From a phage, in assembly GCA_033580375.1 (NCBI GenBank), contig GCA_033580375.1_4527.1: a DNA stretch of 64,000 nt. One strand, given 5' to 3'. Positions within the stretch are counted from its first letter, which is position 1. Every line of letters begins with the position of its first letter. A program made the translations under genes and the position numbers. A model generated the notes under the pieces. That model was not told where the DNA came from. It did no database searches and worked only from the letters and a program-made list of their open reading frames with translations. This document shows positions 6,554 to 37,240 of this stretch, piece by piece.

Positions 6554-6561
6554 TATAAATA
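6554..6561 (+). promoter_or_regulatory. T4-type late promoter (TATAAATA) upstream of gene 36
   Basis: TATAAATA about 27 nt upstream of the gene 36 ATG, followed by RBS AAGGAG. Confidence 0.55.
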
Positions 6562-6587: not shown

Positions 6588-7244
6588 ATGGCCGATTTAA
6601 AAGCCGGAAGTACAGTTGGTGGTTCCGTCATATGGCATCAAGGCAATTTTCCTTTAATGCCAGCTGGCGATGACATCCTATATAAAACATTTAAATTATA
6701 CACTGAATATAACAAGCCAAAAGCGGCTGATAACGATTTCGTATCTAAAGCAAACGGCGGGACATATCTCAAAAAGGTAATCTTTAACGAAGGTGTTGCA
6801 GTCAAAACAGCAGATGACCAAACGAATGGTATTTTTTCTGGTGGTGGTGACGCCGCGACATTCGACCAAACAAACATGGATATTGTTTCGTGGTATGGTA
6901 TTGGGTTTAAATCATCTCAAGGTACCGGTGAAAGAACTGTTGTAATTGATACTCGCACCGGTAATATAAGTTCTAAAGGCGTTATTGAAGCATCTCAATT
7001 CAGAGCCACAACGTTAGCACCTTTAAATAATTACGACCTTACTCGCAAAGATTATGTTGATAGTCAAATAAATACAGTTAATGCTAATGCAAACAGTCGT
7101 GTACTCCGTTCAGGAGATACAATGACCGGTGCGCTAACCGCCCCAAACTTTTTCTCACAGAATCCTGCATCTCAACCCTCGCATGTTCCGCGATTTGACC
7201 AAATTGTTATTAAGGATTCTGTTCAAGATTTCGGCTATTATTAA
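6588..7244 (+). CDS. 36: Long tail fibre distal connector gp36
   Basis: 218 aa (T4 gp36 221 aa), position between 35 and 37. Confidence 0.8.
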   Translation: MADLKAGSTVGGSVIWHQGNFPLMPAGDDILYKTFKLYTEYNKPKAADNDFVSKANGGTYLKKVIFNEGVAVKTADDQTNGIFSGGGDAATFDQTNMDIVSWYGIGFKSSQGTGERTVVIDTRTGNISSKGVIEASQFRATTLAPLNNYDLTRKDYVDSQINTVNANANSRVLRSGDTMTGALTAPNFFSQNPASQPSHVPRFDQIVIKDSVQDFGYY

Positions 7245-12019: not shown

Positions 12020-12292
12020 TTAGTTGTTAGAATACATCGTCAAATGGCGATAAATATTTTCAAAACCTTCATTGAATTCACTAATCAGTGTTTTCTTTTC
12101 TTCGGCAGTTAAATTTGTAATTAGTTTTCTGAACGAATTCTGATTTAGCTGTCGACCATCTTTTTTAATTCCAATCTCATTCAAGAATCCGATGAAATTT
12201 GCTCGGTCTTCAACAATATCTTCCCTCGAGAATTTAATCAAAATAGAAGCAACAGTAATAATTTCACGTACAATTTCAATATCTTTATTCAT
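12020..12292 (-). CDS. asiA: Anti-sigma70 factor AsiA
   Basis: 90 aa; MNK.I..VREIITVASILIKFSREDIVE.RANFI.FLNEIG...NQNSFRK...DEFNEGFE matches T4 AsiA. Confidence 0.9.
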   Translation of the reverse strand: MNKDIEIVREIITVASILIKFSREDIVEDRANFIGFLNEIGIKKDGRQLNQNSFRKLITNLTAEEKKTLISEFNEGFENIYRHLTMYSNN

Positions 12293-16760: not shown

Positions 16761-16907
16761 TTACTCGCCTTTTAACACGTTAATAAGAGCTAAGACCGCT
16801 AAGGTACCTTGTGATACGGCCTGTTGAAATACTGTTGTTTCGCCCGTAACTAAAGTGTTAACGAATAAAAACGACCAACACAGCAATGCAATAATCCATG
16901 CTACCAT
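16761..16907 (-). CDS. small hydrophobic membrane protein (ac-like position), ~48 aa; coordinates approximate
   Basis: Hand-found ORF MVAWIIALLCWSFLFVNTLVTGETTVFQQAVSQGTLAVLALINVLKGE between gene 52 and ndd, where T4 has ac/stp. Below track size cutoff. Confidence 0.3.
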   Translation of the reverse strand: MVAWIIALLCWSFLFVNTLVTGETTVFQQAVSQGTLAVLALINVLKGE

Positions 16908-16959
16908 TTTAATTACCTCAAAAATAAATTAAAGGCCTAACTTAATAGGTCCGTATAAA

Positions 16960-17406
16960 TTAGTAACTCTGCAGAATGAATTTGAAATTATCAGCCAGAA
17001 GACGGTTCATTTCAGTGAGTGTTTGATATTCTGACGTATGGTTGCGAGTGAATGCCAGAGCCAATTGACCTTTACCATAACCAGTAGTCAGTGGTTTCAT
17101 GTTCTTAGCTGCAACAAAGATTACATCATATTCAGTATTGTTAGTGGCCATGGTACGAGCTAGTTGTGAACGGCCTTGACGAATGTGAGAAAGAATTGCA
17201 TCTAACCCTTGTTTAGAACGTTGACGTCCTACAAAGAATCGTGCTGCTACTTGACGCCAGTCAGATGAACCTTTAACGAAGAAGTAAAAACCTTCACGAG
17301 AACGAAACTCTTTAGAAACTTCAGAACCGTATTCGCCATTACGAACTACTGCAACAACTTCACCGCCAACTTCCAGAAGGTCTTTACGAGTTAAATATTT
17401 GGACAT
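16960..17406 (-). CDS. ndd: Nucleoid disruption protein Ndd
   Basis: 148 aa; FY.GNQRSKQG..A.LSHIRQ.RSQLART.A.NN..Y.V...[42 protein letters not shown] matches remembered T4 Ndd. Confidence 0.85.
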
Positions 17407-17482
17407 GCTAATTTCCTCAATTGATTAATGTTTTTGTAATCCATGAGAGCATTATACTCTGCTCTCAAGAGTTTGTACAATT

Positions 17483-17683
17483 TTATTCGGCTATATCAGA
17501 ACGTTCAAAAAGCTCTTCAACAGTTAAACATTCAGTGTCATCTTCAATAAAGAATCGAGTCCAACACGTTGGGGCGATACAGTTATGAGTTTGTCCGGCG
17601 ATAGAAGCTACACGAATAAGCTGCTGACCATTATTCAGAACAAATTTTTCGCCAATTTCAACATCTTTAAAAAGCTTAGCCAT
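17483..17683 (-). CDS. hypothetical protein
   Basis: 66-aa track ORF with Cys pairs. Confidence 0.35.
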   Translation of the reverse strand: MAKLFKDVEIGEKFVLNNGQQLIRVASIAGQTHNCIAPTCWTRFFIEDDTECLTVEELFERSDIAE

Positions 17684-17933
17684 TTTGTGTTCCTCATGTT
17701 TCAGTAAGACTACTATACTATAATCCTACCGTGATGTAAACAATTAAATTACATTAAAATATGTTAAAGCCAACCATGTTCCAGTGAACGAACATGCAAT
17801 GTAAAAAACCGTATCACAAATTGTTTTTAGTACAATAAGAAGTGCATTTTTCATAAGTACCTCAATGCAATTGAAAATATTATACAAATCATAGGGATAC
17901 TAAGCAACCATATTCCGATCCACATTTTAGAGC

Positions 17934-18197
17934 TCATATCTCAACTTCCGCGAGTTCCATATATCCTTTGCTGATAACCTCTTTAAGGTCTTTAGAAAGA
18001 ATAACATCAAAATGGTCGTTCATATGTCCATTAACCAGACGAGTTATTTCGGCTTCAGATGACATATAAGGCACGTCCGAGTCCCAATGAGATAGGCCTA
18101 AATGGGTATAAATCATCCCTTCGTCGTCTGCAGTGTTGTACATTGAAACAAACTCACCTGTCACTTTATGTTTTGCGTAGAAAAATTTAAATTTCAT
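17934..18197 (-). CDS. hypothetical protein
   Basis: 87-aa track ORF downstream of denB. Confidence 0.4.
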   Translation of the reverse strand: MKFKFFYAKHKVTGEFVSMYNTADDEGMIYTHLGLSHWDSDVPYMSSEAEITRLVNGHMNDHFDVILSKDLKEVISKGYMELAEVEI

Positions 18198-34864: not shown

Positions 34865-34872
34865 TATTTATA
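34865..34872 (-). promoter_or_regulatory. T4-type late promoter (TATAAATA on minus strand) upstream of soc
   Basis: Minus strand TATAAATA about 30 nt upstream of soc ATG. Confidence 0.5.
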
Positions 34873-34878
34873 ACTTAA

Positions 34879-35415
34879 TTAGTACCCATTATCCTGACGT
34901 TCAAAGTTGTGTTGGTTTTTCAAGTAGTAAAGTTTAAAGATTTCTTCAGCCGAAAGACCTAGACCCTGGAACATATTTAGAACGAAATGCAGAATATCAA
35001 TCATTTCAAATTTAATTTCAAGTTGGTCTTCAGGAGACAGTTCATCGATACGACGATTTCGATATTCAGCATGTTGTGCTTTCCAAGGCTTCCATACACT
35101 GCTGGCAGCTTTTTCACCATTGCTCATACCACCAAGTGAAGTCAGCAGTTCACGGAATTCATCATCAATATAATCTTTCTGATTACGCAGCCAATCAACA
35201 ACATCGCCAGCAGTGACCAATTCATCAGGATGTTTGTTATGTTCAGGCTTGTCATTTGCCAGACGAACCTGTAAAGATTTCTGCATATCAAGCATTACCT
35301 GCAGTGGGTCTTTATCTTCGTGAATCAGAGCATTAAAATAAGCTTCTTCTGCTTTATCAACACCAGAAATAAGTTGTGAACATTCATTAAAGTGTGCCAT
35401 TATTTTTCCTTTCAA
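34879..35415 (-). CDS. 56: dCTPase/dCTP pyrophosphatase gp56 (MazG-like)
   Basis: 178 aa (T4 gp56 171 aa); position between soc and primase. Confidence 0.8.
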   Translation of the reverse strand: MKGKIMAHFNECSQLISGVDKAEEAYFNALIHEDKDPLQVMLDMQKSLQVRLANDKPEHNKHPDELVTAGDVVDWLRNQKDYIDDEFRELLTSLGGMSNGEKAASSVWKPWKAQHAEYRNRRIDELSPEDQLEIKFEMIDILHFVLNMFQGLGLSAEEIFKLYYLKNQHNFERQDNGY

Positions 35416-35489
35416 TTCAGTATAAGAGAGTTAATTCTAACATTAATTTTATAAAGCGTAATAAATAATAAGGTAACTAAGGAGATATT

Positions 35490-35687
35490 ATGTTTAAACT
35501 TCCATCGTTAATCAATGCTATTAAAGGCAATAAAAAGAAAACTGCTATCGCTGCAATAGTTGTAGGTGGCATTATTTCATGGAACTTCGGTATCGCACCG
35601 GTGTTAGTTGCTAATGGTATTATAGTTCCTTCTGTTCCGTTGGATACTGTTGTTGACCTAGCTTTTGCTGTTATAGGGCTAGTCTAA
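35490..35687 (+). CDS. small hydrophobic protein on opposite strand (candidate membrane peptide)
   Basis: 65-aa plus-strand ORF with strong RBS (AAGGAG, 7 nt spacing) in a minus-strand block; predicted hydrophobic helices; 3' end overlaps primase stop by 4 nt. Confidence 0.35.
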   Translation: MFKLPSLINAIKGNKKKTAIAAIVVGGIISWNFGIAPVLVANGIIVPSVPLDTVVDLAFAVIGLV

Positions 35688-36718
35688 ATTTTAGAATACC
35701 GAGATAATCTCATTTTAGCATGCAACCCACTTGAAATATTCTGTTTCATATATTCTAAAATTTCTTGTGGTGTTGCATTTTCTTTCATTACCATATCATT
35801 CACATCCTTTGATCTCCATGGAGCTCTATCCCAGAACATGACACGTTCGCCTGCATCAACTAATCGCTTCATACGAGCTATAGTATCCGGATGCCTAGGT
35901 TCATTATCCATTACCCATACCCGACGTTCTTTAAATGGTACCACATCTAAATCTATTGAGCCGCCTGTAATAGCGATTGCATTAGGTATGAATAAACTAT
36001 CAATAGGGCCTTCCATTACCCAGACGTCTCCTTCCTTAACACGTTCAACACCATAAATTTTTGTTGCGGACTCAAAAGCTTTAATAGTGATATATTTTTG
36101 AGGAGCATCTTTGCGAAGTGCACGTCCTTGAAATGACTCGGCCTTCCCGTCTTTATTAAAAATAGGAATCACTAAACGCGGTTCGGGAATCTCTTTCTTA
36201 TACGTACCAGGTTGAATCTTGTTGACCAATTTAGGCCATTCTAATGTGAACCATAATCTGTTCCACGATTCTTTAGGAATACACCGAGACTTAACATATT
36301 TCACAATAGGATGCTCTTCAGGCAACTTGTCCAGACGAGAACAAGACGGCAAAGAATTTATAGTCTTTTTCTCCGGTTCTGGTTTATGTTCAGGAACCTT
36401 TTCGATCTTTGGTTCCATTCTAGCTTTTTCTTTACGAACTTCCATTAGATATTCGCGATAAAGCTCTTCGTCATACTCTTTTAAGTATCCAGAAATCGTA
36501 TTATGATATTGGCAGTTATAGCAATGCACATTACCTGGAGTACCGCCATAATACCATCCGCGGGCTTTCATTGCATCTGTCTGAGAGTCGCCACAAACTG
36601 GACAACGAAACGTTAATTTAAATGTGCTTGAATTATTGATTTGTCTAAAACGAGGTAGGTGAGAAAACGCACGATAAGCAAATTCATTATCTATCCATTC
36701 AGCCATAGTATTCTCCAA
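35684..36718 (-). CDS. 61: DNA primase gp61
   Basis: 344 aa (T4 gp61 342 aa); zinc ribbon CPVCGDS...CYNC and TOPRIM motifs (VMEGPIDSLF, VWVMDNEPRH); N-terminus WIDNEFAYRA matches T4. Confidence 0.9.
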   Translation of the reverse strand: MENTMAEWIDNEFAYRAFSHLPRFRQINNSSTFKLTFRCPVCGDSQTDAMKARGWYYGGTPGNVHCYNCQYHNTISGYLKEYDEELYREYLMEVRKEKARMEPKIEKVPEHKPEPEKKTINSLPSCSRLDKLPEEHPIVKYVKSRCIPKESWNRLWFTLEWPKLVNKIQPGTYKKEIPEPRLVIPIFNKDGKAESFQGRALRKDAPQKYITIKAFESATKIYGVERVKEGDVWVMEGPIDSLFIPNAIAITGGSIDLDVVPFKERRVWVMDNEPRHPDTIARMKRLVDAGERVMFWDRAPWRSKDVNDMVMKENATPQEILEYMKQNISSGLHAKMRLSRYSKI

Positions 36719-36745
36719 AGGCCTTAAATTAATAAGGCCATCATA

Positions 36746-37240
36746 TCACAACTTATTGATATTTACTTTAATTCGCTTTCTTTTCTTGTAAGGAATTTGT
36801 TCTGGACCTTTATTTACGACTGCACCTGTAGTTGTTCCTGATGCAATAGCTTGAGGGCTGCCACCTGAATCACCGGCCACCATATCCTCAAATAAAGGGA
36901 GTTCTTTAAATATTTCTTTCTGTTGTTCTTCAGTAATGTTATAGCGTGAAGCTACAGCACTCCAAGCAGACATCATTGAGGCCATTCCATTAAGACCCGG
37001 AACAGTGCTCATCATTCGCTTCATTGAACGAACTGAAGCATGAAAAGGTGTATAAGCCGCTTTCTCTTCAGGAGTAGAAGGACGTTTAAGAACACTTCCA
37101 CGTTCGTCGATTATTTTGGCTTCGTACGCTTTCCATTCTGTAAAAGGTTTTTGCATTAGTCGAATAAACTTATATGCATAAACTGAATCTATTGCAGTGT
37201 TAATAATACCCATAGGTACCTCCTGAGTATATTTAATCAA
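36746..37240 (-). CDS. hypothetical protein
   Basis: 164-aa track ORF. Confidence 0.45.
   Translation of the reverse strand: MIKYTQEVPMGIINTAIDSVYAYKFIRLMQKPFTEWKAYEAKIIDERGSVLKRPSTPEEKAAYTPFHASVRSMKRMMSTVPGLNGMASMMSAWSAVASRYNITEEQQKEIFKELPLFEDMVAGDSGGSPQAIASGTTTGAVVNKGPEQIPYKKRKRIKVNINKL

Follow-up and report, generated by a model that had tools for sequence, protein, structure and literature searches.

The closest described relatives of the gene discussed here are small reading frames of T-even phages that abut the primase gene 61. In phage T4T, dam.1 (ADJ39749.1) runs on the plus strand from 17724 to 17924, between dam (16832-17611) and gene 61. The counterparts in phages RB69 and RB32 are RB69ORF029w (NP_861719.1) and RB32ORF030w, and Nolan et al. 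(2006) listed RB69ORF029w with one predicted transmembrane segment at residues 21-41 (PMC1524935, Additional file 2). Literature searches under the names dam.1, RB32ORF030w, phrog_2024 and T4Tp032, and on ribosome profiling or unannotated reading frames of T4, returned nothing on this gene.

Two groups of better-known small proteins provide a frame for thinking about such a product. Imm, Sp, RI, RIII and holin T are small phage proteins located at the inner membrane or in the periplasm; RI and T have their N-terminus in, are single-pass or of the signal-anchor-release (SAR) type, and extend a C-terminal part into the periplasm, and imm and sp are expressed early. In bacteria, AcrZ, MgrB and MgtS are small membrane-protein regulators. 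We analysed a 64,000-nucleotide stretch of DNA (hereafter the window) from a Mosigvirus/Carettavirus-type T-even phage, which is 97.7% identical to phage phiE142 over 2 kb, and compared its gene 56-61 interval with the corresponding loci of related phages.

A convergent 65-codon reading frame beside gene 61

The ORF occupies positions 35490-35687 on the plus strand, from an ATG at 35490 to a TAA at 35685-35687, as confirmed in the sequence, and its 65-residue product is MFKLPSLINAIKGNKKKTAIAAIVVGGIISWNFGIAPVLVANGIIVPSVPLDTVVDLAFAVIGLV. It lies between two minus-strand genes whose limits we took from annotated relatives: the gp56 dCTPase gene (34879-35400; ATG at 35400, MAHFNE...) and the gp61 primase gene (35684-36706; ATG at 36706, MAEWID...). 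The automatic ORF listing stretches both genes to upstream TTG codons (34879-35415 and 35684-36718, minus strand). At the 3' end, the ORF and gene 61 overlap tail-to-tail in the 4 nt CTAA (35684-35687), which carry the TAA stop on one strand and the TAG stop of gene 61 on the other; at the 5' end, an 89-nt gap that lacks dam separates the ATG from that of gp56. Direct reading places a Shine-Dalgarno (SD) sequence, AAGGAG, at 35479-35484 on the plus strand. The original prediction of a convergent 65-aa ORF with a strong ribosome-binding site, wedged between the dCTPase and primase genes and overlapping the primase stop codon, thus agrees with the sequence and with the annotated relatives. The SD site is equally real; the 7-nt spacing given for it hinges on the counting convention, as 5 nt (atatt) lie between the last G and the ATG.

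In the 51.5-kb block of minus-strand genes (12501-64000), we counted 56 plus-strand ORFs of at least 60 aa, and by its length alone the ORF is within chance expectation. It is the only one of the 56 that combines an ATG with an SD, and the only one with an upstream ATAAATA. Its composition by codon position is that of a typical coding sequence. In the close relative vB_Eco_mar005P1, the counterpart is the sole plus-strand CDS among about 79 CDSs from asiA to gene 47. When 35000-36200 was scanned against Rfam, the single match was a sub-threshold mir-1597 hit inside gene 56 (35090-35157, minus strand; E=0.007), which we rejected as chance since its 27.8 bits fall far below the gathering score of 93.

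The protein is 100% identical to an annotated hypothetical protein of phiE142 and is also annotated in vB_Eco_mar005P1. Searched with tblastn, it matched 693 phage records, 686 of which cover at least 80% of the query. It matches PHROG 2024 (phrog_2024) over its full length (E=2.2e-26; residues 1-65 align with all 65 profile positions), and the same PHROG is matched by the proteins of T4, VR25 (copy b), JS98, Entb_45, CGG4-1 and PM2 with E values from 1e-15 to 1e-31. The T4 counterpart (T4 Dam.1) shares 54% identity with the window protein, and the RB69 protein is nearly identical to it. T4T Dam.1, RB69ORF029w and RB32ORF030w, all members of PHROG 2024, have the same length, strand and gene 61-abutting position as the ORF, and T4T Dam.1 and RB69ORF029w share with it an upstream ATAAATA and SD and a single predicted transmembrane segment. 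Judged by sequence and position, T4T dam.1 and RB69ORF029w have their Mosigvirus/Carettavirus orthologue in the ORF, which is annotated in hundreds of genomes and hence not novel.

No Pfam or NCBIfam family was found for the window protein or six divergent homologues, and among PHROGs phrog_2024 alone was returned. Weak matches to SecF, GltK, YwcE and SspI were set aside as hydrophobic-composition noise far below the cut-offs. Several records carry product names that have no support: the CGG4-1 family member (positions 2501-2725 of locus L018) is misnamed dCTP pyrophosphatase, the family member A0A482MZV5 in BFVD/UniProt is called Holin, and the names putative head morphogenesis protein and DNA packaging ATPase occur among T6 (AP018814), Klebsiella phage EI and the protein cluster P0024. 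These wrong names should not be spread further. Other records omit the gene. The same ORF is present at about 17738-17938 of the T4 RefSeq record NC_000866.4, where it was left unannotated, and it is also unannotated in the RefSeq records of JS98 (L015, 2501-2701) and PEi20 (L019, 2486-2671). Transcriptome or proteome quantification based on these three annotations therefore cannot report the gene, and this applies to read or peptide counts made against the T4 annotation (e.g. PMC9697503).

Conservation of the reading frame was assessed by dN/dS (Nei-Gojobori), which is 0.04-0.45 in 11 pairs of sequences with finite dS. By group, close pairs gave 0.04-0.15 in Mosigvirus, Tequatrovirus and Kanagawavirus and 0.35-0.39 in Gaprivervirus, and distant pairs with finite dS gave 0.17-0.66. 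Among 61 cluster representatives, W31, N32 and P37 are invariant, G43 and P47 are conserved in 95% and 97%, and A39, L46, V49 and an acidic residue at position 52 in about 80-90%; column entropy in this alignment is lowest across residues 31-49. The resulting signature, W-N-x4-P followed by the loop G and P, is complete in the window protein. Frame, length (56-74 aa), start codon, SD and key residues are kept across genera even though the flanking spacers are unalignable, and an SD (AGGAGG, GGAGG or AGGAG) stands at the equivalent position before an ATG in all 15 loci compared. Conservation of the frame and its ribosome-binding site in relatives, the check proposed with the original prediction, is thus borne out by the record coverage, the dN/dS values below 1 and the SD in every locus. 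By these comparative measures the reading frame is under purifying selection, and we regard the ORF as a genuine protein-coding gene with near certainty.

The upstream element, predicted late expression and antisense transcription

The original prediction looked for expression early in infection. The upstream region points the other way: the conserved element before the ORF is the core of a T4 late promoter, and a plus-strand scan of 35000-36800 for sigma-70-like early promoters found none ahead of the ORF, its sole match lying downstream at 36525-36552. The predicted gp55-type late promoter is AATAAATA (35460-35467, plus strand), which matches the T4 late-promoter consensus TATAAATA at -13 to -6 in 7 of 8 positions, with A instead of T at -13; this position is commonly A or T in T4-like phages (PMC1524935). 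Among 15 loci of different genera, whose spacers are otherwise unalignable, 14 have an ATAAATA that ends 13-23 nt short of the ATG. The perfect consensus occurs in three of these 14, and CGG4-1 has ATTAAATA instead. Across the orthologous loci of about 5 kb, there is usually one plus-strand ATAAATA, the copy preceding the ORF. On the plus strand of T4 (NC_000866.4), GATAAATA is found upstream of the ORF, and the 5' end is predicted about 6 nt downstream (around nt 17,722). The HMM scan of Nolan et al. (2006) lists no late promoter before RB69ORF029w (PMC1524935). A T4 dRNA-seq study reports 150 start sites, 22 of them antisense (bioRxiv 10.1101/2024.04.04.588121).

The motif is scarce in the window, where ATAAATA is 3.7-fold depleted (8 copies observed versus 29.3 ± 5.9 expected). 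The copies lie at 1521, 6555, 7068, 11334, 12050 and 24023 (plus strand), 34865 (minus strand) and 35461 (plus strand), and a gene clearly follows those at 6555 (a tail-fibre ORF), 11334 (the holin gene t), 34865 (soc) and 35461 (the ORF); the T holin gene at about 11353 has its own perfect TATAAATA. Behind the plus-strand copies at 7068, 12050 and 24023 there is no SD-led ORF. By position, those at 12050 and 24023 should lie opposite minus-strand early genes, and they could be candidate antisense late promoters.

From the conserved late-promoter core, late expression is to be expected, and on this sequence evidence the ORF is probably a late gene. The element would act as a gp55/gp33/gp45-dependent late promoter, with transcription beginning only after the onset of replication, from a start near 35473 that would give a leader of about 17 nt. 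In that case the early region would hold a late gene on either side of gene 56, the ORF on one and soc on the other. The T4 gene soc is short and has its own TATAAATA promoter (motif at 34865-34872 on the minus strand in the window) and a strong SD, much as predicted for the ORF. It differs in being read from the early-gene strand, in encoding a soluble capsid decoration protein and in having no sequence relationship to the ORF.

The predicted late promoter stands back-to-back with a MotA-type middle promoter for gene 56 on the minus strand (35434-35458), which consists of a MotA-box-like CGCTTTA (35458-35452), a 12-nt spacer and a -10 element TAGAAT (35439-35434). The same MotA-box/-10 architecture is found in six other loci (mar005, a Tequatrovirus-like contig designated L009, VR25, JS98, PM2 and CGG4-1), and it coincides with the RB69 promoter Pm:16038 (score 21.6; Nolan et al. 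2006, Additional file 4, PMC1524935). In L009 and VR25, the late-promoter core falls inside or directly beside the spacer between MotA box and -10 element.

The scan for sigma-70 promoters and terminators found no terminator-like site downstream of the ORF on the plus strand, and thus none between the convergent genes, so a late transcript would have to read on, as antisense RNA, into the 3' end of gene 61, probably as a side effect. One can turn this around and propose that the antisense RNA is the functional product, which pairs with early or middle mRNA and helps to shut off primase or dCTPase synthesis late in infection, the ORF being secondary. The geometry is suited to such a role: in every locus the ORF overlaps gene 61 tail-to-tail or ends within 18 nt of it with no terminator in between, the predicted late promoter is conserved, and the transcript is convergent also with the mRNA that reads through from 61 to 56. 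A role of the RNA only, however, would not preserve protein residues, SD and ATG, and this is where it meets opposition: purifying selection acts on the amino-acid sequence, subfamilies with only about 20% identity have invariant residues in common, and a strong SD and ATG are kept in 15 of 15 loci. We consider the antisense RNA an improbable principal product, although antisense transcription may occur as a by-product. A type I toxin-like arrangement, in which a hydrophobic peptide is paired with an overlapping antisense RNA, was dropped: the partner here is a 340-aa essential replication gene instead of a small RNA, and the peptide has a conserved non-hydrophobic motif.

Predicted topology of the protein and its possible roles

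Reading the ORF as a late protein-coding gene, we turn to its product. Only one segment, centred on residues 18-41, exceeds the Kyte-Doolittle transmembrane threshold (best 19-residue mean 1.95, residues 23-41). Hydropathy and AlphaFold2 together place a single predicted transmembrane helix at codons 17-41 (35538-35612, plus strand), which holds the invariant W31, N32 and P37. The N-terminal 17 residues (K3, K12, K15-17) have a net charge of +5 in the window protein and of +1 to +7 across the family. Beyond this basic stretch, neither the window protein nor its T4 counterpart contains K or R, and standard tryptic proteomics would probably overlook it. Codons 42-65 (35613-35684, plus strand) encode a conserved loop (G43, P47, V49 and the acidic residue 52) and a short C-terminal helix (51-62), both predicted to be periplasmic. 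For the C-terminal 19 residues, the summed Hessa free energy is 6-11 kcal/mol and the net charge -2 to 0 across the family; at this energy the region is not an independent transmembrane segment. In the window protein it is still fairly hydrophobic (Kyte-Doolittle mean 1.64, net charge -2), and a re-entrant or hairpin arrangement is possible.

AlphaFold2 returned the same helices with alignments of 8 and of 61 sequences (3/4-11/12, 15/17-41 and 51-62, with a loop at 42-50), in both cases at pLDDT 81, with values of at least 87 at residues 21-50 and a confidence peak at residues 31-50. The original prediction of a hydrophobic, membrane-type peptide is consistent with these models; its several transmembrane helices reduce to one, followed by the short C-terminal helix. 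By the positive-inside rule, the modelled protein is probably a single-pass membrane protein with its N-terminus in and its C-terminus out. It would insert into the inner membrane with the basic N-terminus facing the cytoplasm, and the segment W-N-x4-P-x5-G-x3-P-x-V-x2-(D/E) together with the short C-terminal helix would sit at the periplasmic face. A model of three helices and 65 aa is too small to infer a fold from. Foldseek gave nothing with E below 7 against the PDB and family members only against BFVD, the top match being a 52%-identical homologue labelled Holin.

That label suggests a holin or another direct lysis effector, and the product does share with holins its small size, its predicted late expression and at least one predicted transmembrane domain (residues 17-41, approximately). 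The best structural match in BFVD, however, is the UniProt entry A0A482MZV5, a member of the same uncharacterised family, and its name is no independent evidence. A highly charged, hydrophilic C-terminal domain is typical of holins; the ORF product lacks one, its charge cluster being N-terminal. Neither an endolysin nor a spanin gene is adjacent, the neighbours being the genes for gp56 and gp61; a T holin is already encoded elsewhere in the window (at about 11353); and no holin family was matched in Pfam, PHROGs or NCBIfam. A direct lytic function is accordingly quite unlikely.

Returning to a predicted single-pass protein that is expressed late, the most likely mode of action would be binding, because conservation is concentrated in the juxtamembrane segment and not in the anchor. 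This segment would bind and modulate another inner-membrane or periplasmic protein in late envelope events. The small envelope proteins of T4 (Imm, Sp, RI, RIII and holin T) resemble the product in kind of protein only, with no detectable homology: searches of PHROG, Pfam and NCBIfam for relationships to T, RI, RIII, Imm, Sp or spanins matched only PHROG 2024. Holin T is encoded by a late gene with a TATAAATA promoter; imm and sp, unlike the ORF, lie on the minus strand in the early-gene block of a close relative; and the predicted periplasmic part of the product, unlike that of the T4 proteins, comprises only about 25 residues. AcrZ, MgrB and MgtS offer an analogy in their size below 70 aa, their one transmembrane helix and their short conserved juxtamembrane motif, which would suit a larger membrane protein as partner, although they have no sequence or structural match to the product. 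By such analogy, the product could conceivably affect lysis timing, lysis inhibition or late superinfection exclusion, although this is rather unlikely, and timing, location and analogy are what speak for it. A narrower proposal is more doubtful: a Tevenvirinae-specific late inner-membrane factor whose periplasm-proximal W-N-x4-P...G...P segment would bind a membrane protein of phage or host, such as holin T or a part of the machinery for lysis inhibition or superinfection exclusion, and so tune lysis timing or late exclusion. Such a factor would have escaped classical genetics and annotation-based studies because the T4 RefSeq record does not annotate it.

Distribution of the family and the dam slot

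We checked the position of the gene in the window, T4T, RB69, VR25, JS98, Marfa, PM2, CGG4-1, PEi20, Entb_45, ZX14 and Roth01. In every Tevenvirinae-type genus sampled, the homologue lies on the plus strand, tail-to-tail with gene 61 and on its gene 56 side, and this orthologous position is held in Tequatro-, Mosig-, Caretta-, Gapriver-, Dhaka-, Marfa-, Mosuguk-, Gelderland- and Kanagawavirus and in Klebsiella phage Roth01. The 4-nt overlap with gene 61 is identical in T4, RB69, VR25, JS98, Marfa, Entb_45 and PEi20; the overlap amounts to 21-24 nt in PM2 and ZX14, and is replaced by gaps of 2 nt in CGG4-1 and 18 nt in Roth01. A second, divergent subtype, which has about 20% identity to the window protein and belongs to the same PHROG, occupies the same position in JS98 (Dhakavirus), Marfa, PM2 (Mosugukvirus), CGG4-1 (Gelderlandvirus), PEi20, Entb_45, ZX14 (Kanagawavirus) and Klebsiella phage Roth01. 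The Gaprivervirus members VR25 and VR26, and also ESCO47, carry both subtypes in tandem (in VR25 at 2501-2698 and 2707-2907 of locus L004); the second copy starts ATG-TGA in VR20 and is truncated in VR7. The tandem paralogues suggest redundancy and differential loss of an ancestral pair.

Beyond these phages, a narrow Mosigvirus profile matched two clusters among 1.84 billion representative proteins. A broader profile matched 60 clusters of 47-74 aa among 5.8 billion proteins, on contigs of which the longest reach about 175 kb; all those named by source are from phages, and none of the 60 is named as bacterial or informatively annotated. Six T4-like genera outside the group lack the ORF: Tulanevirus (AS-gz), Lazarusvirus (DP45), Bragavirus (Pm5461), Slopekvirus (KP15), Krischvirus (TB34) and Pseudotevenvirus (RB16). 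In all six the next gene is co-directional with gene 61 and only a few nucleotides away, and there is therefore no room for the ORF. In KP15 and RB16 the next gene is 56 itself, at a distance of 7 nt, and the spacer is missing along with the ORF. On this comparison, the 61-56 junction appears to be ancestral and to be a hot spot for insertions (dam, the ORF, HNH endonuclease genes). The distribution across genera thus argues for a Tevenvirinae-type acquisition at the 61/56 junction, where dam or other genes were inserted in some lineages.

In T4, dam lies between the ORF and gene 56, whereas in the window gene 56 adjoins the ORF directly; otherwise there is no difference of substance between the two loci. 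The original prediction rightly placed dam in the T4 56-61 interval and noted its absence here, and it took the ORF to be present instead, that is, as an early-expressed convergent gene that fills the dam slot in one lineage. The missing dam is what recommends this idea, and the second half of it does not survive comparison: T4T carries dam (16832-17611) and dam.1 (17724-17924) side by side, so the two are not mutually exclusive in this interval; Tequatrovirus-like contigs that lack dam, L009 among them, keep the ORF; and the element conserved upstream is a late-promoter core, with no sigma-70-like promoter. An early, lineage-specific replacement is very improbable, and as a substitute for dam the ORF is excluded by the comparative data.

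Least credible of all, and likewise excluded by the comparative data, is a chance ORF in a promoter-rich spacer that was spread by automatic annotation, for although non-coding-strand ORFs of at least 60 aa are common in the window (the 56 counted above) and many records give arbitrary names, frame, length, start, SD and key residues are conserved despite unalignable spacers, dN/dS is well below 1, and the distant T4-like phages without the ORF (KP15 and RB16, with genes 61 and 56 only 7 nt apart) are also without the spacer.

As a whole, a late-expressed, single-pass small membrane protein orthologous to dam.1 is the explanation that we favour with reasonable confidence. The gene itself is ordinary, an annotated conserved hypothetical of T-even phages. 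The useful by-products of the analysis are the proposed late-gene assignment, a definition of the family and its predicted topology, and a gap in the reference T4 annotation. As the sole late-strand gene in an early block of about 47 kb, with a conserved late-promoter core, it extends the inventory of a well-studied model phage by one predicted late membrane protein. Modulation of lysis or exclusion by this protein, if real, would be a small addition to T4 biology and not a new kind of system.
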